From Thermoplasmata archaeon (GTDB taxonomy: Archaea > Thermoplasmatota > Thermoplasmata > Lutacidiplasmatales > UBA184): a stretch of 62,520 nt of DNA. The stretch's first letter is position 1; each line of letters begins with the position of its first letter. Position numbers and translations under genes: made by a program. The stretch spans positions 1 through 62,520 of the forward strand of contig JAGWLG010000018.1 of the NCBI GenBank assembly GCA_028864975.1, written 5' to 3'. The notes under the pieces were generated by a model that did no database searches, was not told the DNA's origin, and saw only the letters and a list, made by a program, of their open reading frames with translations. Positions 1-44,118 of this stretch are shown here, one piece after another.

Positions 1-584
1 GGCTCCGCCAGGAGCCGGTCGCAGAGCGCCAGGACGAACCGGCGGTTGTCGAACCGGTCCGGCCGGGTGATGATCTGGATGTCGAAGTCGAGCGCGTTCA
101 GAAAGCCCAGGAATCCCTGGATGTGCTCTTCGCGCTCCTCGGAGGAGAGGATGGCGAAGTTGACCCCCTTGACCTCCACGACGCGGACGTAGACGTCGTT
201 CGGTAGCAGGAGCGTGTCGTGGGTGAGGCCGGTCAACTGGACGTAGGCCTGGGCCGCCTCCCCCTCGAGCCTGGCCGGCCTCGCGCGGAACCGTTGGCGC
301 AGGGCCAGGTACTTCAGGAGCGGCAGGTCGGCCCGGCGGACGAACCCGAGGATGAGCCCCACCACGACCGCCCCGACGAAGGCGAGGATCCCCGTCGCGG
401 TCGCCCACACGGTGTGCGGAGCCAGGCCGTTGATGGAGTAGCCCAGGAGGGCGCCCAGGGAGGCGGAGCCCAGGAGGTAGCACCCCTGCTGGACCGTAAT
501 GGGGCCGATCCTTGTCGCCAGCGACCCGATGCGGGGCGGGAAGATCACCATCCCGTCCGTCGCGGTCTCCCCGTCCTCGCTCAT
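1..584 (-). CDS. PrgI/VirB3-like conjugation membrane protein with TraE/TrsD-like region (3' end outside window)
   Basis: Not in ORF track. Manual translation from ATG 584 (ATGA overlap with stop 581): MSEDGETATDGMVIFPPRIG..IGPITVQQGCYLLGS..2 TM helices..YVRVVEVKGVNFAILSSEEREEHIQGFLGFLNALDFDIQII; this pattern is typical of the gene preceding VirB4 in Gram-positive/archaeal T4SS. Confidence 0.7.
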   Translation of the reverse strand, partial: MSEDGETATDGMVIFPPRIGSLATRIGPITVQQGCYLLGSASLGALLGYSINGLAPHTVWATATGILAFVGAVVVGLILGFVRRADLPLLKYLALRQRFRARPARLEGEAAQAYVQLTGLTHDTLLLPNDVYVRVVEVKGVNFAILSSEEREEHIQGFLGFLNALDFDIQIITRPDRFDNRRFVLALCDRLLAE

Positions 585-1810
585 GCGCTCGCCCTCTTCC
601 TCATCTCATGGATGTACGCACTGTCGGCGCCGTACCAACCGCCGTGCGGGAGGACGAACCCCGACTTCGTGCGGTCGTTGAGGTCGATCTTGCCGGAGGC
701 CACCGCCTGGGCCGTGACCTTGGGGACCCCGCTCTTCTGGAGGGCCCGCGACCTCAGAGCGGTCCGTCCATGCCGGACGATCTTCTGGCCGGCCCACTTG
801 CTTCCGTGAATGAGGGAGATCGCGCCGATGGCCCCCATCCCGGAGACGCCGTGTCCGGCGGCGACCAGCCGCGCGGCCTGGCCGACCTTGCTGAGGACCC
901 CAACGGGTCCCTTGGCGGCCGCCGTCGCTCCCGAGATGGCCCCGCTCGACCCCTCAACGCCCGGGAGGCCCGAGCCGCCGCCCATGCTGCTCGCCCCCAG
1001 TACCCCGCCGAGGACGGCCTGCCCGACGCTGGAGACCGCCGACCCGCTCTCCGTCATGACCTTCGGCATGGCGGCCGCGAGGGCGAAGCTGCCGAGGACG
1101 AGCGCGATGTTCAGCGCGCCGTTCGAGGTCCCGTTCCCGTTGATGAAGAGGGACCCCAGGACCAGAACGATCCCGATGAAGACGTTGACGAAGGTCCACT
1201 CGAAGAACATCTTGATGATCTTCGTGCCGAAGGCCTGGGTGGTCGGGAAGGACCAGAGGAGGAAGGCCCAGGGGAGGATGGCCCCGGTGAAGAAGACCAT
1301 CAGGATGCGGACGCCCTGCTCGATGAGGAGGGTCACCAGCAGGATGATGGACATCAGGTAGAGGACCACGGCGAGGGGCCCCGACCCGCTGAACCAGTTG
1401 CTCCACCCCCCCGTCGAGAAGACGTTGAAGTTCCCCTGGGAGAGGATGGCCGTCGCGAGCTCGTTCGAGACGGAGATGCAGAAGTTGCCGATGAGCATCG
1501 TGGACGAGCCCAGGATGAGGGCATAGCCGAGCTTGATCCAGAGCTGCTTCAACTGGAACTTCTTCTCGGCCAGTGGGGAGAGAATGTACATCAGGCCGAT
1601 ACCGGCGATGGCGATGCCGAGTGCCCCGAGGAAGACGGCGTAGGTGATGCTCCAGACGGCGGCCACCGCGGGGTTGGAGAGGCTGGGGGTGGTCTGGACG
1701 GCCGAGACGCACCACTGGAGGAGCTGGTCCGACAGCGCGGCGAAGGGCGAGGAGATGGCGCCCCAGAGGCTGTTCCAGATCAGGTTCGCGAGGTCCTGCT
1801 CCCAGCTCAT
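581..1810 (-). CDS. VirB6/TrbL-like polytopic conjugation channel protein
   Basis: 409 aa, about 6-7 hydrophobic helices, 'VRILMVFFTGAILPWAFLLWSFPTTQAFGTKIIKMFFEW' core and Gly/Ala-rich basic C-tail as in VirB6/TrbL; coupled to neighbours. Confidence 0.75.
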   Translation of the reverse strand: MSWEQDLANLIWNSLWGAISSPFAALSDQLLQWCVSAVQTTPSLSNPAVAAVWSITYAVFLGALGIAIAGIGLMYILSPLAEKKFQLKQLWIKLGYALILGSSTMLIGNFCISVSNELATAILSQGNFNVFSTGGWSNWFSGSGPLAVVLYLMSIILLVTLLIEQGVRILMVFFTGAILPWAFLLWSFPTTQAFGTKIIKMFFEWTFVNVFIGIVLVLGSLFINGNGTSNGALNIALVLGSFALAAAMPKVMTESGSAVSSVGQAVLGGVLGASSMGGGSGLPGVEGSSGAISGATAAAKGPVGVLSKVGQAARLVAAGHGVSGMGAIGAISLIHGSKWAGQKIVRHGRTALRSRALQKSGVPKVTAQAVASGKIDLNDRTKSGFVLPHGGWYGADSAYIHEMRKRASA

Positions 1811-2394
1811 GGCCCCTCTTCCTCCCCGTGGTCGCCCACGATCTTGCGGAGGCCGGCGACGAGCAACAGCGTGAACGCGAGGAACAGCCCGACCCCGACG
1901 AGCTGGAGGAAGAGGGGAAAGGCCGGAGGGGGAGGAGAGAGCGAGCCGTTGCCGCTGGGAGGGGGCGGGATGGAGGGGGACGAGTTCGTCCAGACCAGGT
2001 CGATCGCGATGCTGGACTGAGAGGAGACGTTGTCGACCTCGACCTGGGCCTCGGTCGCACCTGGGAGCCCGCTCAGGGGGTGCCCCAGAACCAGGACGGT
2101 GCTGACGTTGGTCAGGTTCATCCCGGCGAAGTCGGAGTAGGTGTAGTTCGCTCCGTTGGAGACGGAGAAGTTCTCGACGGGCTCGAGGTCCGTCTCGTTG
2201 AGGAACAGGAAGTCGGCGACCGCCTGGGAGACCGGGACGGTCGAGTTCGAGGAGGAGTTGTGGAAGGAGAGGAAGACCTGGAAGGTCGGACCGTCAGCGG
2301 CGAACGCGGGGTGGGGAAGGAGGGGGGAGGCGGAGGATGCAGGGAGGAGAGGGAGGGCGAGGCACAGGGCGAGGGTGGCAGCGAGAGTGGCCAC
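1807..2394 (-). CDS. Secreted, C-terminally membrane-anchored protein of the transfer operon
   Basis: C-terminal part of ORF 1807..3180; GTG 2394 gives signal peptide (VATLAATLALCLALPLLPASSA), N/S/T-rich domain, Pro linker, TM helix; stop overlaps ATG 1810. Confidence 0.65.
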   Translation of the reverse strand: MATLAATLALCLALPLLPASSASPLLPHPAFAADGPTFQVFLSFHNSSSNSTVPVSQAVADFLFLNETDLEPVENFSVSNGANYTYSDFAGMNLTNVSTVLVLGHPLSGLPGATEAQVEVDNVSSQSSIAIDLVWTNSSPSIPPPPSGNGSLSPPPPAFPLFLQLVGVGLFLAFTLLLVAGLRKIVGDHGEEEGP

Positions 2395-2538
2395 GCATCG
2401 GTTGCGGAGCCTTCGGAGGTTCGACCGCCTCGCGGGGCTCAAGAGTGGGAGCGGGCCAGGATCGGTGACCTGTCCTGGAACCAAAGTATTTCTGGAGTCC
2501 GCGGCTCGCAGCGTTGACCCGCGGACGGTGGAGGAGGA

Positions 2539-2799
2539 ATGGGCATGCGGACCTGGGGCTCCTGGATCGTGGCGGTGGCACTGGCGGGTCTCGGTTTCGC
2601 CTTCTCCTGGCTCGCTTGGAAGAGCATCCCCTGCCAGACCGACCCTATGCTCAACTACCCGGGATGCTTCGACCGCTACACCGCCCTTGAGAACACGTCC
2701 GCCCAGCTCTTGTGGGCAGGGTCGATCCTCTTGATCTTGGTCACCACCCTCCGACACAGATTCTGGGTCCAACCCCGAACCCCGAACCCCGCATCGTAG
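2539..2799 (+). CDS. Small two-TM membrane protein (antisense to the operon)
   Basis: 86 aa, two hydrophobic segments around a Cys-Cys loop; AT-rich AAGTATTT about 50 nt upstream. Confidence 0.55.
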   Translation: MGMRTWGSWIVAVALAGLGFAFSWLAWKSIPCQTDPMLNYPGCFDRYTALENTSAQLLWAGSILLILVTTLRHRFWVQPRTPNPAS

Positions 2800-3180
2800 A
2801 TCGGGAACCTCGTGGTCGGCGGGCAACGCCACGAACGGCTTGCGCCGCCGTGGGATGCCCGCCGGAATGGGTTGTGGTCGCGGGGGGGTTGTGGGGCCCC
2901 CGGTGCGAGGGCCCCCGCGCTCCGCCGGATCCCTGGTCCACGGTGGGCGGACCGGCTCGGCGCGCCCCTCGTCGTCGTCGGGGGTGGCCCGGTGCAACGA
3001 AGCGAGGAGAGGAAGGGAGGCGAGCCCCGATCCGGAGGGGGAATCAGGCGGGGGCGGCCCCCGTGGCAGCCACCGGTCGAGCCCAGGGCTCCGTGTCCAC
3101 TTGCAGGTCAGGCAGGCTGTGACCTTCCCATCCTGGTTCTCGAGGGTGTGGACCCCCCCGCAGCGGGGGCAGGAGTTCAT
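2796..3180 (-). CDS. Zn-ribbon protein (CPRC..CLTC); true 3' end uncertain
   Basis: N-terminus of ORF 1807..3180 (MNSCPRCGG..ACLTCKW); ATG overlaps stop at 3177; remainder is Pro-rich low complexity. End coordinate is approximate. Confidence 0.35.
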
Positions 3181-3470
3181 GCGGCCCCCTGGAGGATCGC
3201 CTGGTCGGACCCAGGGGAAGAGAGGTTTTCGTCCGCGACGGATCGTGGGGTGCTACTGTCCCTCACCTTTCGGAGCTGACTCGCTCGCCGGGGCCGCGTC
3301 TGGGCACGCCTTACGATGGGCCACTTGCCCTTGATGGGGTCGAATCGCGGCCTCCGGGACTTCGGCAGATCGGGGTGCACCTCGTCCACGGTCGCGAAGT
3401 GCTCGGCCCAGGAGCCCAACCAAGTCACGCAGAAGCGAACGATCTCCTCGTCCCGCGAGCGCCTCGCCAT
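3177..3470 (-). CDS. Hypothetical protein (could extend upstream to GTG 4247)
   Basis: MARRSRDEEIVRFCVTWLGSWAEHF.. looks globular; the upstream in-frame part (3471-4247) is low complexity and overlaps the promoter/hairpin array. Confidence 0.45.
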   Translation of the reverse strand: MARRSRDEEIVRFCVTWLGSWAEHFATVDEVHPDLPKSRRPRFDPIKGKWPIVRRAQTRPRRASQLRKVRDSSTPRSVADENLSSPGSDQAILQGAA

Positions 3471-3567
3471 GGACGGCGAGGAAGGGGTAGGGCTGACCGT
3501 GGGGTCGAGGTTGTCGGGTGACCCGTAGGAGCCCCCGGTCCGGCCCTCGGCGACCTGGCTGACGGAG

Positions 3568-4194
3568 CCCTTATCTCCGGTGAGAGTCTTCTCTCCTTGG
3601 CGAGTGGGGGCAGGGCCTGCACCCGGTCTTACCGGGAGTCCGGTAGCCCCCCGCTCGTCCCCTACAGCCGGTCGAGGTCCACTCCTGTCAGGCGACGGGG
3701 CCGTGGAGGGCCCGGGGCCTGCGGAGCTGGGCGGGGTAGCATACCTCCACTCGACCCCGAGGCGCGTCGCGTCGCTGGAGGGATCCGTCTCTGGGACCAG
3801 CGGATCGGCGGCTCTCCCCGCATCCTTATCTCCGGCGCCAGCTTCCTCTTTGTGGCGGAAGAAGGGCGGGGAGGGCCCGGCAAGGCACGGCTTGGTAGCC
3901 GCCTCCCCGCCTTGGTCCGTATCCACCCTGACCGTGTCCACGAGGAGGTCTTCGACCAGGGGTCCGCGGGAGGCACCCACTCCTCCCCGCTGGTTCGCCC
4001 CGGGCAACGAAGCTTCGGAAGATCGACCGACGACCGGAAAGCCGTGGCCGCTAGACGGACCCTCGACGCAGCCCTTATCTCCGGGTCGGACCTTCCCCCC
4101 CTGGCGGCCGGGGGAGAGGCCTGCGAACTTCGCCCCGACCGCCCCCGCTTGGAGGGGGGGACGGGCAGGAACGCGAACGAGGTCCTGCCCGTCC
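3568..4194 (+). repeat. Three-unit array: CCTTATCTCCGG-N-CTTC(Y)n-TGGCG followed by GC-rich stem-loops
   Basis: CCTTATCTCCGG at 3569, 3824, 4073; TTATCT-to-TGGCG distance is 27 nt in all three; stems 3600-3611/3646-3658, 3865-3874/3902-3911, 4104-4113/4133-4142. Confidence 0.8.
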
Positions 4195-4243
4195 GAGTCC
4201 ACGGGAAGGGCGTGCCTCGGAGGGAAAGCGCGGGGAGCGGCGT

Positions 4244-4861
4244 TCACGCCCCCTCCGTTGCCGCCCGTGCGCGCCCACGCTCCGGGATCCCCAAGCTCTC
4301 GCGTAGCGCCTTGACGGCGCGGACCTTCGTGTCGAGGTCCTGAGCCAGGAGCAGGTTCACCCGGGCGAGGAGGTCCTCGTCCGACTCCCCCTCGCGAGCG
4401 TGGGTCGCGAGCGCCGAGCGGCAAGAGGCGAGCGAGAGGGACCCGGAGACCCACGTGCGGCCCTGGTGAGGCGTGGGAGCGACGCCTTCGGTCTCGTGCG
4501 GTTCCTCTTCCTCTCCTCCCGAGGAGGATGCGACAGGACTCGGCGGGGGCGAGGGAGCCACGCAGGGTCTCGAGGAGGTCGGGGTCGGGGCGGGCGGCCT
4601 GGGAGGAGGGGAGGTCCTCGTCGGGCTCGGCGCGGGTCGGCCCGTTCCTCCGTTCGTGCCGTTCGAGGGGGACGGGCGCACCGCGGTCCTACTCCCGCCC
4701 CACGTCCCGGCGTCCGGGCTGTGTTCGGGGATCCACGCCTTACGGGGCCGCGCCTCCAGGTCGACAACGACCTTCACCTCGGGGCCCGCAGGGATCTCGG
4801 CCCCGCACCCGTCGGCACATTTCGCGGGCCAGCGCTGGCCCGTGAGGGTCCGCAGCCTCAT
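4244..4861 (-). CDS. Protein with one copy of an unrecognised C-x3-C..H domain, Pro-rich linker and short helical C-terminus
   Basis: MRLRTLTGQRWPAKCADGCGAEIP..VVVD..PRKAWIPEHSP; paralogous to 4858..5379; ATGA-coupled. Confidence 0.65.
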   Translation of the reverse strand: MRLRTLTGQRWPAKCADGCGAEIPAGPEVKVVVDLEARPRKAWIPEHSPDAGTWGGSRTAVRPSPSNGTNGGTGRPAPSPTRTSPPPRPPAPTPTSSRPCVAPSPPPSPVASSSGGEEEEPHETEGVAPTPHQGRTWVSGSLSLASCRSALATHAREGESDEDLLARVNLLLAQDLDTKVRAVKALRESLGIPERGRARAATEGA

Positions 4862-5379
4862 GCGGCCTCCGGCGGGAGGGCAGAGCGCTGCGGTGCCGCG
4901 GTGCCCATCGCCCGAGCCCGGTCGGCCTCGGGGCTGTGCTCCGGGAAGTAGACCCGGCGGGGCCTCGACCCCATCTCCACGACCAGCGAGACGCCCAGCC
5001 CTGCGGGGATGATGGTCTCACACCCGCACGCGCACTTGGAAGGCCATCGCTGACCCTCGACCGTCATGAAGTGGGGGCGCCGCGCGCTCGCCGAGTTCGG
5101 AGAGGTCGAGGAGGCTGGGATGGGTCGGGCCGCAGCTCCAGGATCGACGGGCTGCGAGGAGGGCCCCGTGGGGGGCGAGGGTGGGGTCGGTGCGGGGGTC
5201 AGGGCCCCCGCGTCGTTCCCGTCGGTAGTCGCCGGAGCGTGCTCGGGCAACCACGTCTTGCGTGGATGCGCGTCGACATCGACGACCACCTTCGCGTCGG
5301 GGGAGGGCTCGATGCGGCGCCCGCACCCGCAGGCGCACATGGCCGGCCATCGGGTCCCCGTGAAGGTGCGGAGCCTCAT
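4858..5379 (-). CDS. Protein with two copies of the same C-x3-C..H domain
   Basis: TFTGTRWPAMCACGCGRRI..VVVD..PRKTWLPEHAP and TVEGQRWPSKCACGCETII..LVVE..PRRVYFPEHSP. Confidence 0.7.
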   Translation of the reverse strand: MRLRTFTGTRWPAMCACGCGRRIEPSPDAKVVVDVDAHPRKTWLPEHAPATTDGNDAGALTPAPTPPSPPTGPSSQPVDPGAAARPIPASSTSPNSASARRPHFMTVEGQRWPSKCACGCETIIPAGLGVSLVVEMGSRPRRVYFPEHSPEADRARAMGTAAPQRSALPPEAA

Positions 5380-5744
5380 GCGGCACCTCCCGAAGGGACG
5401 GCGCGGGCCGGGGCGGCGACCTCGGTGGAGGTGGCCGCGTGGGCGAGGCTCGCCGAGGTCGGGACCCGTTGGGGGAGGGAGGTGGTGCCCTCAGGAGTGG
5501 CCGGCAGGGGGGCTTCACCGGGAGTGCACCGAAAGTACCGGGCCGGGGCGCCGTCGTACCCGACGGCGTGGAGCATCTCGGTCACCCGATCGTAGAAGAC
5601 GACGAGCTCGAGGTCGAGGCCCTCGCGGCGCAGGAGCGCCTGCACCTCGTCGGCGACGCGGTCGACCCACGAGTCGTCCTCGGTCGTCCGTTCGGCGCGC
5701 TTCGAGCGGAAGCGGGGGGAGGAAGGGGAGCACATCTTCCCCAC
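5376..5744 (-). CDS. Hypothetical protein
   Basis: 122 aa; GTG start abuts the pilin stop, stop overlaps next ATG; globular core SWVDRVADEVQALLRREGLDLELVVFYD. Confidence 0.55.
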   Translation of the reverse strand: MGKMCSPSSPRFRSKRAERTTEDDSWVDRVADEVQALLRREGLDLELVVFYDRVTEMLHAVGYDGAPARYFRCTPGEAPLPATPEGTTSLPQRVPTSASLAHAATSTEVAAPARAVPSGGAA

Positions 5745-5745
5745 C

Positions 5746-6234
5746 TCACCCGACGATGAGGCCCTGGGCGACGGAGACCAGGACCACGGACATCAGGACG
5801 ATGACGAGGCCGACGACGATGCTGTAGAACTGCCGGTTGCGAGTGGCCTTCTTGTTGGGGTCCATATCCTCCAGGGAGCCCAGCATGTGCTGGATGCCGT
5901 AGATGGCGAAGGCGATCCCCGCGAGGAGGATCGCGACGCCGATCAGGAAGTACTGGATGTTGGAGAGCGTCGCGGCGAGGTCGCAGGTCGCGTTCTGGCA
6001 GTTCGCTCCGGCCGTCGCGTGAACGACGGAGTGGGGGGTCTCCCCCACCACGGGGACCGGCTCGGCCTGGGCCGGCGCGACCAGCAAGGACGACATCGCG
6101 AGCAGGGCCGCGAGGGCGACCGTCCAGAGGTCCAGGCGGGGCCAGCGACCTCGTGCACGGGGGTGGGCGTGTTCGGCGTCAGGGGGGGCTCGGCGGCTCG
6201 TCTCTCGAGGAGAGGCTTGCATGGATGCCCCCAT
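5746..6234 (-). CDS. TrbC/VirB2-like conjugative pilin precursor
   Basis: Signal peptide ending AQA, then two hydrophobic helices separated by a charged loop (YFLIGVAILLAGIAFAIYGIQHMLG..KKATRNRQFYSIVVGLVIVL); first gene of the operon. Start ATG 6234 or 6222. Confidence 0.7.
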   Translation of the reverse strand: MGASMQASPRETSRRAPPDAEHAHPRARGRWPRLDLWTVALAALLAMSSLLVAPAQAEPVPVVGETPHSVVHATAGANCQNATCDLAATLSNIQYFLIGVAILLAGIAFAIYGIQHMLGSLEDMDPNKKATRNRQFYSIVVGLVIVLMSVVLVSVAQGLIVG

Positions 6235-6248
6235 ACTGCCCACGTATA

Positions 6249-6260
6249 TGATAATTATCA
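6249..6260. promoter_or_regulatory. Palindromic bidirectional TATA element TGATAATTATCA
   Basis: Perfect 12-bp palindrome giving TTATCA on both strands, between the divergent pilin operon and the AbrB-like gene. Confidence 0.6.
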
Positions 6261-6302
6261 CGCCATAGACACAGCGCACGCCCCGCTTACCACTAACGCC
6301 TT

Positions 6303-6929
6303 ATGTACCCCCAACCCCTCCCTTCTTCCGTGCCCTCCTCAAGCGACCCCGAGGCCTGGGTCGTGTTCAAGACCGGCCACCCGAGCTACGGGACGACGAT
6401 CCTTCCTCTCGAGCTGGCCGAGGCCCTGGGTCTTCCCCCGGTCCAGCCCAAGGGAGAGCGGCCGGACCCGAGCCGCAGGTCGGTCGCGTTCCTGGACCGG
6501 GGGGACGGCCGTCTGCGCGTCATCAGCGTCTCACGTTCTCCGATGGTCCTGGCCGCCGCCATCTCGCAGAGCAAGGTCGTGTCGCAGATCGGTCTCTCGG
6601 ACAAGCTCTACTTCAACCTCCCCGCGGCGGTCGAGTCCTTCCTCTCCCTGAAGGGGTTCCGCGACCCCGAGAACCATAACCGGGTGACCGACGAGGTCCT
6701 GGCATGGCTGATGCCGGCGGAGGAGTACTACACCTTCCGCGAGGCCAAGAGGGAGGAAAAGCCGCCCTTGGCGAGCCTGGGTGGCCCGGCCCACGTCTAC
6801 CTCATGAAATCCCACTTCCCGGGGCTCCTCCCGCCGCTCAAGGCCTTGGAGGAGGGCGAGGAAGAGGTCGCGCCGCGGCCCGTCGCCCCGCTCGCGGTCT
6901 CTCGCCCTGCTAGGAAGGTCCGGGCGTAG
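6303..6929 (+). CDS. Putative AbrB/MraZ-like (duplicated swapped-hairpin) transcription regulator
   Basis: Two AbrB-like segments (YGTTILPLELAEALGL; KLYFNLPAAVESFLSL); divergent from the transfer operon. Confidence 0.5.
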   Translation: MYPQPLPSSVPSSSDPEAWVVFKTGHPSYGTTILPLELAEALGLPPVQPKGERPDPSRRSVAFLDRGDGRLRVISVSRSPMVLAAAISQSKVVSQIGLSDKLYFNLPAAVESFLSLKGFRDPENHNRVTDEVLAWLMPAEEYYTFREAKREEKPPLASLGGPAHVYLMKSHFPGLLPPLKALEEGEEEVAPRPVAPLAVSRPARKVRA

Positions 6930-6979
6930 AGGAAGGGCCGAGAAGGCCTGCGTGCCTGCCTCGTGAGGCAGTGAAGAGT

Positions 6980-7267
6980 TCAGGACGCCGCGGTAGGCCT
7001 GCGACCCGATTGCGCGGGGCGGTCCCTGACGAGAAGGCAGACGCCTGTGGCTATCAGCGCCGCGCCTGCGATGAGAGAGACGATCTCTCCCCACCCATAG
7101 TAGGTTGGGCAGGAGGACGTGAGGCAAGCTGACTGTCCATTGCATGGCGGTGGACGTGGACATGGCCCATAGCCGGGGTCGAAGGAGAAGCTCAGTGCGA
7201 GCGCGAGGAAGACCACGAGGGCCACCGCCCCCAGGGTGAACAGGACCCGTTCACGCGCTCTTCGCAT
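6980..7267 (-). CDS. Small two-TM protein with Cys-rich external loop
   Basis: 95 aa, TM - CPRPPPCNGQSACLTSSC - TM. Confidence 0.55.
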   Translation of the reverse strand: MRRARERVLFTLGAVALVVFLALALSFSFDPGYGPCPRPPPCNGQSACLTSSCPTYYGWGEIVSLIAGAALIATGVCLLVRDRPAQSGRRPTAAS

Positions 7268-7291
7268 GACTGACCACCCTCCAGGGCCCCC

Positions 7292-8602
7292 TCACAGCAC
7301 ATCCGCGAGCAGGTCCGGTTCCTCCCCTTGGTTGGGGCTGACCGCCTCCCGACGTACTCCACTCGACGGGTTGACGGAGCCTCCCGGAGTAGGCCTCGTT
7401 CCGGGTTCCCCACCTCGTGGCACATCTGCAGGCTCGAGAGTGATTCCCGAGCGTCGGCGAGGTGCCTGCCCGTGTGTCTGCATCTTGCGTCGGACAAGAA
7501 CGCCGATCAGGGCCGCAGCAACCGCGAGGACGGCCACCAGGACGATCAACCATCCGAGGGCGAACGGCGAGCCCGTCCACGGGAGGCCGGGGCCGCCTCC
7601 GTACGCCGGAGGGTGCAAATGAACGGCTTCGATCGCGTTCCAGGAGGCCCCTGCGGAGTCACTAACCTGGAGTGTAACGAGGAAGGTCCAAGGCCCTGTA
7701 GTACGACGGAACGTGTGATTCACCGAGGCATTGGACTGTACTGGGCTCTGGCTCCCATCCCCAAACGTCCATTGGTACCGATACGGGGGCGTCCCGCCGA
7801 CCGCGGCCCCGTCCAGCGTGTAGAGTTCCTCGACCGTTGTTCCGTTAGAAAGCAAACCGGAGTCGAAGTACTGGGTGGCAAGAACGAACTTGCCGCCGGT
7901 TTGAACGAGGATGTCCAGAATGTAGTCGGCACTCGTCCCGCCCCCGGAATAGTTCGCATTCGTGCGGGCCGTGACAACGACCCGGAACTCTCCCGTGGAG
8001 TTGAAGGCGTGGGTGGGATTCTGAGCGTACGAGACGCCACCATCCCCGAAGTCCCACGCTACATCTTGAACTGGGGCTTGGTTCCCGCTCGCGGTGGAGG
8101 TGAAAGCCACAGCGGCCCCCGACGACGTCGCCGTGTAGCTCTCTACGGCGGCAGAGAAATCGAAGTTGTAACCTACATGCCCTGGGGGTGGAACGGTGAG
8201 ATTGTAGGATGCTGTCGCAGTCGTTCCGGCGCGATCAGTGACGATGACGATGTATGCGAATGTTCCGGGCCAGATGAGGTACGCCGCCACAGGACCGGGC
8301 CCCGTCTCACCACCATTCCAGATGTACGAATACGGAGGCAGTCCGCCTGTGGCGTTCGCCGTGAGATTCTCGTTGACATTGGCGTTCCCGGGTGTCGTGG
8401 ACTCGCTGATGGTGACCCGAAGGGGAGCTGCAGAAGGGTCGGCCGTTGACTTGGAGCTAGGGACGGAACCTGACACTTGAGAGGGGACGAGAAGGACCAG
8501 ACCGACCAGGAGCGCAGCGGTGACCCACATGACAGAGCCTACCCCGTGCCTCCCGGCTGGGCACACCCTGATCGTCTGGAGGTACGGCATGGTCCCGTAC
8601 AT
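7292..8602 (-). CDS. PKD-domain cell-surface protein with C-terminal TM anchor
   Basis: Signal peptide, WDFGDG/WTFGDG PKD motifs, TM helix followed by RRK; start may be ATG 8530. Confidence 0.85.
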   Translation of the reverse strand: MYGTMPYLQTIRVCPAGRHGVGSVMWVTAALLVGLVLLVPSQVSGSVPSSKSTADPSAAPLRVTISESTTPGNANVNENLTANATGGLPPYSYIWNGGETGPGPVAAYLIWPGTFAYIVIVTDRAGTTATASYNLTVPPPGHVGYNFDFSAAVESYTATSSGAAVAFTSTASGNQAPVQDVAWDFGDGGVSYAQNPTHAFNSTGEFRVVVTARTNANYSGGGTSADYILDILVQTGGKFVLATQYFDSGLLSNGTTVEELYTLDGAAVGGTPPYRYQWTFGDGSQSPVQSNASVNHTFRRTTGPWTFLVTLQVSDSAGASWNAIEAVHLHPPAYGGGPGLPWTGSPFALGWLIVLVAVLAVAAALIGVLVRRKMQTHGQAPRRRSGITLEPADVPRGGEPGTRPTPGGSVNPSSGVRREAVSPNQGEEPDLLADVL

Positions 8603-38932: not shown

Positions 38933-39301
38933 TCGGGGCTCCCTCGGCCTCCTCGCGGTGACCTTACCGGGAACTCTCGTCCCCGCTTCGGGGCGGACCG
39001 GACCGATGGGCCGACGGTTGCCCCTCGTGGCCCTCAGGTCGAAGACAGCGCCGACCGTCCGATCGCGGACTCGCAAGCGGGGGGACCCGTCATCGGGGGG
39101 GAAGGCGGCCCGTCAGGCGCCGATCCGCTGACGGAGCCGAGGCTCGTGCCCCCGCTGACAAGCGAGAAGCAAAGACGAGCCTCGGGAGGACGTGTCCCGA
39201 GGGCTCGCGCCCGATGCGATACGTCCGAAATGGACGAACCCCGATTGGTTCGGCCGAGGCCTCCCTCGAAAAGGGAGGGAGGCCGAGGGCCCCCCGTCCA
39301 T

Positions 39302-39781
39302 TCAGGGACCGAGCACCGCCATCGACGCGTTGCGCCCGAGGGAGAGCTGGAGGCGGCCCCGATACTCCTTGACCCAGGCCCCCGCGAGGCGGACGCGCTG
39401 CCCTGGCTGGAGCTTCGTGGTCTGAGGCCCCCAGAGGACCAACTTCACCGTGCCCGACGCGTCCTGGAGCACGGCGTCAGCGACTTCGGCGGGACCACGG
39501 GAGGTGACGACTTCGCGGGTGGGACCGACAGAGGCCACGGTGGCCTCCAGGGTGGCTTCTGCGTTGGGGCGGAGGGCGGCAATCCCCGCTGAGGCGGGGG
39601 CGGCGCTGGCGAGGGGTCCCCCTTCTCCCCAAGAAGCCGAAGGACCGGTGGCAGGGGACCCCGAGCGAGGCCCCGTTCCCTGGCCCAACGGGGCCGAAAT
39701 GGGGCGGCCGCAGGTCGGGCAGGTGGCGCGGTCGGCGTTGGCGGCTGGTTCGGAGGCGCTGTTGGCGCTGCTCGCGGACAT
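39302..39781 (-). CDS. ssb: Single OB-fold ssDNA-binding protein with N-terminal CxxC extension
   Basis: IAALRP..ATVASVGPTREV..VADAVLQDASGTVKLVLWG..VKEYRGRLQLSLGR: archaeal SSB/RPA OB fold. Confidence 0.85.
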   Translation of the reverse strand: MSASSANSASEPAANADRATCPTCGRPISAPLGQGTGPRSGSPATGPSASWGEGGPLASAAPASAGIAALRPNAEATLEATVASVGPTREVVTSRGPAEVADAVLQDASGTVKLVLWGPQTTKLQPGQRVRLAGAWVKEYRGRLQLSLGRNASMAVLGP

Positions 39782-40205
39782 CGGTGAGATTGTCCGCGAG
39801 ATGCGATGGCTCGTGGGGCTGTGGCCCAAGCCCGCCGAAGGCGGGCATGCGCCCGAAGGGCGCATCTCGTGCACACGGAGCGGAGCGCAAGCGGAGCGGA
39901 GTGTGCGCGTTCGATCGCTCCGACCAGGACCCGGACTTCCTCCACTCGTTCACGCGAGACGACCAGCTCCTTTGGGTGCGGCCGAGCGGAGACCCACATG
40001 CGTCGGAGCTCGGCCGCACCGCGGCCCCCCAAAGGTCAGCTGGGCCTTCTCCGAGCTACAGGGCGGCGACCCGGGAGGGGAGCGCGAAGCGCGTTGGGGA
40101 GGTGTCCCTTCCTCCCCAAACGACAACAAGATGCGCCCCGCCTGCGGGTGAGGAGGCGGCCCAAGGAAGGACAAGGCGGGGGCTTGCGGCCCCCGCCCCC
40201 ATGCT

Positions 40206-43007: not shown

Positions 43008-43325
43008 CTACGCCGTGCCAGGGAGCCGGTGGAACATGCGTCGCAGTTCGCGGATGTGGGTCTTGTCGTAGGCGGGGGGACGCAGCCAGAACTTCCCGAT
43101 CCAGACCGTCCTCCCGTCCACCTTGAAGAACACCCGGTAGGGGCCGAGAGGGAACCGCCAGACCCCCGGGACCTGCCCGACCTCCTTCACCGGCAGGAAG
43201 GGGTAGGAGCGGTACGGGTTCGCCTCGAGGTACGGACGGAGCGCCTTCAACCTGCGCTGAAGGTCCTTCGACAGACGGTAGAACTCCTTCTCGGCGGGGA
43301 GAAGGAAGCGGACCTCGTAGGTCAC
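43008..43325 (-). CDS. relE: RelE/ParE-family toxin
   Basis: YEVRFLLPAEKEFYRLSKDLQRRL..GVWRFPLGPYRVFFKVD. Confidence 0.9.
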   Translation of the reverse strand: MTYEVRFLLPAEKEFYRLSKDLQRRLKALRPYLEANPYRSYPFLPVKEVGQVPGVWRFPLGPYRVFFKVDGRTVWIGKFWLRPPAYDKTHIRELRRMFHRLPGTA

Positions 43326-43537
43326 ACGCCCGCCCGCTCGAAGACCTCTTCCGCGCTCGGGCCGCGCAGGTCGGCAAAGCGGTGCTCGAGCTCCTTGACC
43401 AGGCGCGGGGGGAAGTGCTCCTCGACCATCTCGAGGATCAACTCCTCGTAGGTCTGCCCTGAAGCCTTGAGCGCGTCCAGGAGACGGCGCGTGCTCTCAT
43501 GGACCTGGAGGGTCGTCGTGGGGTCCTTGGCGGCCAT
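43322..43537 (-). CDS. RHH-like antitoxin 3
   Basis: TTTLQVHESTRRLLDALKASGQTYEELILEM; promoter CCTTATCTCC followed by palindrome ATAGCGCGCTAT. Confidence 0.8.
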   Translation of the reverse strand: MAAKDPTTTLQVHESTRRLLDALKASGQTYEELILEMVEEHFPPRLVKELEHRFADLRGPSAEEVFERAGV

Positions 43538-44118
43538 CGCTCCTCTATAGCGCGCTATGGAGATAAGGGCGCGCCCCCTTCGTCGAGCGGTCCGGGCGGC
43601 GGTACGGAAGATCCCCCAAGGATTCGGTCCTGCCGAGGGGGAGAGGGGTCCCTCACCCGTCGTCCCAATTGCTCTCGGGGAAGCGCGCGCTGGCGCGGGC
43701 CTCCACCTCCGTTCGCCCGTCGTGCGGGCTCGATCGCTCGGGGCAATTGGGAAAGGACCGCCGCAGGCGGTCCAGGCGGCCGAAGGCCGCCTCTCGTGCA
43801 CTCGGCCAACGGCCGAGTGCGCGCAGGAGGGGATGCCCAAGCCCATGTACGTCCCAGATCAGTTCTCCCGGGATGGCCGGCTCTCGTTGGTGGGGCCTCG
43901 GGGCGACCTTCCGGCGTCGTCCCGAGGCCGCCCGCGGCCCCCAATGAGTCAGCCGGACCCTCTCCGAACGGCCCGGGGCCCGCGAGAGGGTAGCCCGAAC
44001 GGGCGTAGGGAGAGTTGCTCCCTGCCATCCTCGAGAAGATCGACCCCGGGTCGAAAGACCGACGAGGAAGGAGGGAAAGGGGCGGGGGCGCGGGGCCCCC
44101 ACCCCCCTGCCCCGGGCC

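Follow-up and report, generated by a model that had tools for sequence, protein, structure and literature searches.

Three in-frame copies of a promoter word within an accessory gene of a Thermoplasmata transfer operon, candidate sources of antisense RNAs

Conjugative plasmids of bacteria are known to control themselves with cis-antisense RNAs, such as FinP against traJ in F-like plasmids, Anti-Q in pCF10, and CopA in R1; these RNAs are 60-110 nt long, have defined terminators, and target the 5' leader. To our knowledge, no antisense control device has been described in a T4SS-like transfer operon of archaea. The locus analysed here resembles the plasmid systems, in which a short promoter in or beside a transfer or replication gene gives a stem-loop RNA of the opposite strand that lowers expression, although for our locus this is a prediction. 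It differs from them in that a coding region contains three promoters, each with a body of its own, in that a terminator is lacking, and in that the host is archaeal; it has no relation to them in sequence or in Rfam.

The locus is also similar to the leaderless BRE/TATA promoters of archaea, in which an AT-rich box precedes the start by ~26-30 nt; leaderless genes are numerous there. Antisense starts are indeed common in archaea: dRNA-seq of Haloferax volcanii gave 1244 antisense start sites, with ~30% of genes touched (PMC4983044), and promoters inside coding sequences and operons are reported to be prevalent in Halobacterium (PMC2710873). The array described below differs from such mapped antisense starts in that a perfect copy of the strongest promoter word of the genome is triplicated in frame inside one gene and in that synonymous-site conservation and a covarying hairpin accompany it; its starts are predicted ones.

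The window, i.e., the whole stretch of DNA that was analysed (62,520 nt), is an entire contig of a 3.6 Mb assembly with 68-70% GC. The 12-mer CCTTATCTCCGG is found on its + strand at 3569-3580, 3824-3835, and 4073-4084, at intervals of 255 and 249 nt, and a genome-wide word search located these three copies, all in the array, and no other in the assembly. A shorter 10-mer, CCTTATCTCC, has an extra fourth copy at 43559-43568 on the - strand; its four matches in the window compare with 0.06 expected, and at least four were reached in 0/100 shuffles. In all three units, the gap from the 12-mer to TGGCG is exactly 17 nt, with CTTC and a pyrimidine tract between them, and TGGCG starts 27 nt after TTATCT. 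The word search thus confirmed the three 12-mers and their spacing as claimed in a sequence-only reading of this DNA, and the TGGCG spacing claimed there was likewise seen in every unit. Read on the minus strand, the repeats give R-x-x-x-K/E-x-x-x-G-D-K-G/D, and both spacings are multiples of three. The features to be discussed are as follows.

3546-3602, + strand: head 1, with an upstream block, RGCC-CTTATCT (12-mer at 3569-3580), a pyrimidine tract, and TTGGCG at 3597-3602
3599-3659, + strand: three-tier hairpin (12 + 5 + 6 bp) where the transcript of unit 1 is predicted to begin, from the RNAalifold consensus
3691-3728, + strand: second conserved hairpin region (GGCGACGGGGCC ... GGCCCG), helix 5 of the consensus, with 13 pairs, 92% paired, and one-sided changes only
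3812-3857, + strand: head 2, with the 12-mer at 3824-3835, a pyrimidine tract, and GTGGCG at 3852-3857
3865-3911, + strand: unit 2 hairpin, with a 10-bp perfect stem (3865-3874 with 3902-3911) and a 27-nt loop
4061-4106, + strand: head 3, with the 12-mer at 4073-4084, a pyrimidine tract, and CTGGCG at 4101-4106
4102-4142, + strand: unit 3 opening stem, 5+5 bp with one mismatch
4159-4209, + strand: 12-bp perfect hairpin and its conserved 3' flank CGAGTCCACGGGAAGG, recurring in three contigs of relatives (G010:C9, G001:C54, and G001:C50)
3177-4247, - strand: 356-aa protein gene that occupies the variable slot of a T4SS-like operon, overlapping with its neighbours and having the homologue P0004
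3180-3470, - strand: C-terminal conserved part of the protein, with 45/97 residues identical to P0004 and the best coding frame by hexamer score
43536-43568, - strand: fourth occurrence of CCCTTATCTCC, which is the putative promoter for a small gene interpreted as an antitoxin, 31 nt before the ATG and overlapping a 20-bp near-palindrome

The likeness between units is limited to 34-60 nt of each ~250-nt unit, the remainder being unrelated; heads 1 and 3 are 73% identical over 60 nt, and units 2 and 3 have only the promoter head in common. Each unit had been claimed to open with a stem, and such stems are present (12 bp with two G-U in unit 1, 10 bp in unit 2, and 5+5 bp in unit 3), as is the perfect 12-bp hairpin, in which 4159-4170 pairs with 4183-4194. 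Of the words described as shared in the loops, GGTAGC is at the positions given (3642, 3735, and 3894), but AG(G/A)GGCC holds only approximately (AGGGCC in units 1 and 2, AGAGGCC in unit 3), and its location in loops is putative.

The 8-mer CCTTATCT, which is the core of these heads, is a promoter word of this organism. It occurs 18 times genome-wide (3.6 Mb), four of the copies being on this contig, namely those of the array plus the copy at 43559. Outside the contig, 13 of 14 copies stand 18-69 nt (mostly 27-37) before the start of either an ORF with a positive coding score or a tRNA, and these comprise tRNA-Gln and 12 protein genes; for a reversed control word, only 3/31 were before gene starts. 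Upstream of tRNA-Gln is AGCCCTTATCT, the same 11 bases as in units 1 and 3, and in both the tRNA-Gln gene (C32:51747) and the gene at C104:88004, AGCCCTTATCT is accompanied by a pyrimidine tract and by ATGGCG 27 nt after the start of the word. Several genomic CCTTATCT promoters indeed carry a pyrimidine tract and ATGGCG or GTGGCC at the distance of the TGGCG of the array, which is 28 nt after the start of CCTTATCT in 3/3 units and is replaced by TGACG in the homologous contig described below. More generally, the 43 tRNA genes have AT-rich boxes (CC-TTTA/TTAT) ~25-35 nt before the mature 5' end, and 905 aggregated gene starts show an AT peak at -33 to -26. The proposal of TATA-like promoters is therefore borne out by the same word at the same distance before tRNA-Gln and 12 protein genes. 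While these promoters of the genome (e.g., tRNA-Gln and C104:88004) stand before genes, the copies in the array point antisense into an operon, with no gene downstream. As a working promoter word, RGCC-CTTATCT at ~28 nt before the start would be usable for annotating this high-GC archaeal group.

The extra 10-mer on the - strand (43559-43568) lies 31 nt ahead of an ATG, in agreement with the claim that the same word precedes an antitoxin gene; the small gene is taken for an antitoxin in view of the RelE/ParE-like ORF behind it (43008-43325). The near-palindrome CTCCATAGCGCGCTATAGAG (20 bp; within 43536-43568, - strand), which comes after the promoter word and directly before the ATG, is likely to be the operator of this putative antitoxin gene.

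The array is embedded in the minus-strand gene 3177-4247, which starts with GTG at 4247 in a GTGA overlap with the TGA stop of 4244-4861, has GGAGG just upstream of the GTG, and ends with a stop overlapping (ATGA) the start of 1807-3180. It is thus coupled to both neighbours in a T4SS-like operon of a Thermoplasmata element, and the operon spans from a weak TrbC/VirB2-type pilin match in Pfam (5746-6279) to a weak PrgI-like match (3-584); Pfam gave no match for the gene itself and most of its neighbours. A word-indexed search with the 356-aa protein returned zero homologues, an exhaustive protein search returned a single one, P0004 (250 aa, E 1e-39), and a second indexed search with P0004 as the query returned P0004 itself only. 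P0004 aligns to residues 159-356 (198 codons) ungapped with 46% identity, and its source is a 3.1 kb metagenome contig (L234), in which the same operon slot is occupied: the gene order is pilin, 4858-like, 4244-like, slot gene, and 1807-like, again with 4-nt overlaps. The neighbour genes of the two contigs are 44-49% identical, and the slot gene therefore diverges at a similar rate. Its alignment to L234 is ungapped over 594 nt at 63% nucleotide identity, which argues for a maintained reading frame and hence for a real gene; judged from these alignments, 3177-4247 is a real but fast-evolving accessory gene. The caveat of the sequence-only reading, that the repeats are in frame on the minus strand, accordingly holds, as they sit within a conserved protein gene.

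P0004 has nothing that corresponds to the N-terminal 158 residues, in which units 2 and 3 are located. GC3 is 0.92 in 3327-3476. In 3471-4247, no frame beats the non-periodic model in hexamer score; the open minus frame would arise by chance with p about 0.005-0.016. An AF2 model from a two-sequence alignment (mean pLDDT 44) is coil to around residue 250 with one helix at 258-283 and, at this low confidence, has no sign of a folded repeat domain. The N-terminal ~250 aa are hence predicted to be disordered, and the C-terminal ~97 aa are modelled with a helix at low confidence.

In relatives, the slot is variable: it is empty in G003:C45, where ~14 nt replace window 3191-4271, and in G003:C9 and G010:C152 it is filled by other small genes. 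The first 31 residues of the small gene in G003:C9 (L017, 1298-1390) are 87% identical to P0004 and are followed by a wholly different sequence, which suggests that these two slot genes have a common leader and swapped bodies. We also considered a transposon insertion with target duplication, given GTTCA(T/C)GC at both ends, and rejected it in view of the absence of terminal inverted repeats and the other genes that fill the slot in relatives.

Within this gene, the motif looks to have been selected as DNA, on a comparative base of 2-3 sequences. Over codons 222-234, 11/11 identical residues are encoded by identical codons in the window and the homologue, compared with 43/78 (55%) elsewhere (Fisher p = 0.003). 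GGA GAT AAG is found in all three copies and in the homologue, though GGA and GAT each account for only ~17% of usage among Gly and Asp codons, respectively. L234 retains the full 12-mer, and nucleotide identity to it peaks at ~93% over 3549-3578 against 63% overall; furthermore, mismatches in head-to-head comparison are spread evenly over codon positions 1, 2, and 3. The protein and DNA constraints are confounded here, because GDKGSV.QVAE is also conserved as protein and, as kept in P0004, is the best conserved protein block outside the C-terminal part. A conserved GDK with variable third positions had been named as the outcome that would speak against RNA genes; the opposite was found in the sole homologue, where all 11 codons are identical and the synonymous sites of the motif are conserved. 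In the related heads of G001 and G010, TTATCT of the window is replaced by CTCAAG, and they hence are not TATA-like there.

The opening stem of unit 1 (12 bp including two G-U, ~3599-3659) was analysed with RNAalifold in an alignment of three sequences: window 3597-3762, the reverse complement of L234, and G001:C53, a same-genus contig in which the unit 1 piece stands just before a + strand ORF. The full consensus has 44 pairs with 94% of cells paired and six pairs with compensatory changes, whereas slid controls gave 41-51% of cells paired and 0-2 compensatory pairs; six compensatory pairs were reached in 24/500 shuffles. The three helices of 3599-3659 have 23 pairs, five with compensatory changes. 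Between the window and L234, indels of -1 and +1 bracket the hairpin, so that the two genes translate it in different frames; ~71% nucleotide identity in this segment goes with 1/18 residues identical, and its core, TGCACCCGGT..TACCGGGAGTC, matches L234 at 21/23 positions. Such conservation of the hairpin across different frames is hard to explain by protein constraint. For the second region (3691-3728), the cause of conservation is ambiguous, since it is also conserved as protein (G.GPS.APSP).

R1, a covariance model built on the hairpin of unit 1, gives 85 bits on the + strand and 22-31 bits on the - strand. Its search of the window, the related loci, and 41 genomes returned only the three training members and missed units 2 and 3, which indicates that the three unit bodies are not one RNA family. 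The consensus energy is -63.8 kcal/mol on the + strand and -54.3 kcal/mol on the - strand, to which we give little weight, as the difference is largely a matter of composition and a shuffled + strand also folds more stably; whole-unit MFE z-scores on the + strand are ordinary (-0.4 to -1.0). Rfam 15 had no family match to the window (the sole chance match, to a miRNA, was at E 0.79) and none to the related loci, and a tRNA scan was negative. R1 may be a small candidate RNA family with three members, absent from Rfam. As for the claim of structured RNAs, the unit 1 hairpin with its compensatory changes and the retained stem of unit 3 speak for it, the ordinary whole-unit energies do not, and one shared family is contradicted by the failure of R1 to find units 2 and 3.

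For unit 2, no homologue was found in our searches. In unit 3, 4112-4158 is homologous to G010:C9, and the hairpin that follows recurs in G010:C9, G001:C54, and G001:C50 with an identical stem and loops of 11-14 different bases; one variant copy has G:C replaced by A:T on both arms, i.e., a compensatory change. Three of these relatives are in apparently intergenic DNA. The segment 4159-4209 corresponds to the 5' half of a two-hairpin module in the relatives and is truncated at ~4209, the second long hairpin being absent in the window. This GC-rich module, which is not in Rfam, comprises the stem GACGGGCAGG/CCTGCCCGTC, whose loop varies, and then CCACGGG-AA-GGTCTTCC-loop-GGAAGACC-GA-CCCGTGG. 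Its sites are the following.

G010:C9 (L041), 3377-3640: two-hairpin module
G001:C54 (L040), 2276-2387: two-hairpin module
G001:C50 (L049), 797-866 and 2939-3187: two-hairpin module

In G001:C50, copies of the module and a 75-nt direct repeat flank a DUF885 gene on both sides; the 2-kb insert there was tried as an IS and turned out to be this gene between repeated modules. The copy in G001:C54 is located 57 nt after a DDE transposase gene. The hairpin flank was also considered as a tRNA T-arm or an att site, which was unsupported (the tRNA scan was negative). The DNA that follows the module in G010:C9 is present in the window at 39021-39113 and 39236-39584, 35 kb away from the array and downstream of a large adhesin gene, and the elements are hence mosaics of shared short blocks; in this DNA, 39302-39584 is conserved in common with G001, G003, and G010 and lies within ORF 39302-39874 (- strand), which is OB-fold-like by sequence. 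Beyond these loci, a genome contig scan with the 17-base hairpin-flank pattern gave almost only chance matches and the known G001 contigs, a search of metagenomes with the hairpin pattern yielded 61 palindromes that were otherwise unrelated, and in viral sequences the head pattern had two chance matches, both unrelated. One weak DNA match was found in genome G172, and we base no claim on it.

From the motif and its promoter specificity in the genome, the nucleotide-level conservation, the covarying hairpin, and the real gene, all of which are observed, we infer transcription, RNA ends, and a regulatory effect as follows. The array may be dual-use DNA, in which promoters embedded in a coding sequence fire cis-antisense RNAs, and to this reading we would give an even chance. 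The minus strand would encode the disordered N-terminal two thirds of an accessory gene in the transfer operon of a mobile element, while on the plus strand each repeat would be a full copy of the host TBP/TFB promoter (RGCC-CTTATCT, pyrimidine tract, and TGGCG). Transcripts would start near 3597, 3852, and 4101, antisense to the slot gene, and with no T-run terminator following would run on into the upstream transfer genes; indeed, no T run of at least four is found on the + strand in 3230-8000. Each transcript would open with a GC-rich stem-loop, and the 60-nt three-tier hairpin of unit 1 would protect or mark its 5' end. At window 6298-6307 on the - strand, TACATAAG stands 28 nt before the GTG of the pilin-like gene and probably serves as the transfer operon's leaderless promoter; transcripts from the heads on the + strand would run against it head-on. 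The RNAs would thereby damp the slot gene and its neighbours, either by pairing into duplexes or by colliding with the operon's own transcription, which comes from the pilin promoter near 6300. Of the earlier proposal of three small antisense RNAs, the promoter word and the constraint are upheld, but "small" is not, given the lack of a terminator-like T run, and nothing supports roles as antitoxin RNAs or guides.

The repeats could instead be a protein motif only (R-x3-K-x3-GDKG), present three times in a disordered region, with the promoter likeness on the other strand being accidental and untranscribed. The in-frame spacings of 255 and 249 nt, a real gene conserved ungapped over 198 codons, the conservation of GDKGSV.QVAE as protein, and the low probability of a chance open frame (p about 0.005-0.016) would all suit such a motif, and the surroundings, predicted at low confidence to be coil, are the usual setting for linear motifs of disordered proteins, which the repeats also resemble in being in frame and conserved in a homologue. 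Unlike such motifs, however, the array has invariant codons, including rare ones that are the same in four copies and, at 11/11 positions, in the homologue, and its flanks show no codon-position bias, the differences between heads being even over the three positions. The 8-mer is, moreover, almost confined to promoters elsewhere in the genome, and the adjoining hairpin is conserved though read in different frames; we thus regard the protein motif by itself as rather improbable. A somewhat different possibility is that promoter-bearing intergenic DNA of related elements has been recombined into the slot and kept open for translational coupling; its promoters might still be active, but antisense transcripts would be by-products with no evolved role. 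The bodies of units 1 and 3 indeed have DNA homologues in relatives, which sit just before a + strand ORF, beside a transposase gene, and on both sides of the DUF885 gene; the module of unit 3 is truncated at ~4209 compared with the copies in relatives, the slot is empty or filled with other genes in G003 and G010, and the array has no hexamer coding signal, no terminators, and three mutually unrelated bodies. Yet the head and the unit 1 hairpin are conserved beyond the need of the protein in an independent element at 63% identity, which indicates selection and not decay, and all three TATA words are perfect here, unlike in the G001 and G010 copies, from which they have been lost. Captured relics of this sort therefore have a real but minor share of our expectation.

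The conservation at the nucleotide level would also suit sites bound by a protein in place of promoters, for instance the operator of a regulator, a transfer origin, or a recombination site. The fourth copy abuts a 20-bp palindromic operator-like site, and the hairpin of 4159-4209 with its conserved 3' flank is laid out like a relaxase or recombinase site; nonetheless, the 8-mer marks the starts of unrelated genes and a tRNA, as a general promoter word would, and the Pfam scan of ten operon ORFs (3-8602) revealed no relaxase or recombinase family, so that we hold this explanation to be very unlikely. Least probable of all would be a protein gene on the + strand, either as the leaderless ORF 3597-4343 or as nested isoforms from TTG 3597 and GTG 3852. 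While NTG-GCG has the position of leaderless start codons, one open + frame includes all three, and this frame scores about as well in hexamers as the minus frame, the product would be Arg-rich and looks like an out-of-frame reading, and its third start would be CTG. The frame is, furthermore, broken in G001:C53 (a stop after 22 codons) and shifted in L234, and the ORF runs into the conserved 3' end of 4244-4861.

Returning to the antisense promoters, we consider the following to set this locus apart: the in-frame triplication of a consensus promoter, its synonymous conservation, a covarying 5' hairpin in two frames, and the archaeal T4SS-like setting. Should the promoters fire, the array would make a candidate for antisense control within the T4SS-like transfer operon of an archaeon, and it would clearly exemplify a piece of DNA on which protein and promoter/RNA constraints act together, here in a Thermoplasmata lineage that is uncultured. 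The TATA box could be abolished by recoding GGA GAT AAG synonymously, which would leave the protein as it is and separate the two functions in a simple way. We further entertain, as a doubtful extension, that the head-plus-body units are modular cassettes of a promoter and a structured RNA, which move between mobile elements of Thermoplasmata and have been stacked in frame in the slot gene. If so, a disordered region of a transfer protein would have been built from, and would still be working as, an array of antisense RNA genes, which would exemplify a coding sequence born from the DNA of RNA genes.

Some features of the neighbouring genes were also noticed. The gene 1807-3180 (457 aa) has a window-specific insert of ~146 aa (window 2338-2823), which is missing in G003, G010, G000:C92, and L234 and in which its own frame scores as non-coding. 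Antisense within this insert is the + strand ORF 2539-2799 (86 aa, two hydrophobic helices), with GGAGGAGGA directly before its ATG and an AT-rich box ~50 nt upstream; a search of 60 family genomes found no homologue. The same genome has a second, shorter copy of the operon core (G000:C92:366-1806, L016), in which the pilin-like gene is directly followed by the 1807-like gene, without the three middle genes and the slot gene. Finally, 4244-4861 and 4858-5379, compared with L234, L014, and L017, have an internal repeat common to both genes and their homologues (49-63% identity over ~50 aa, tblastn), and the two genes diverge as fast as the slot gene.
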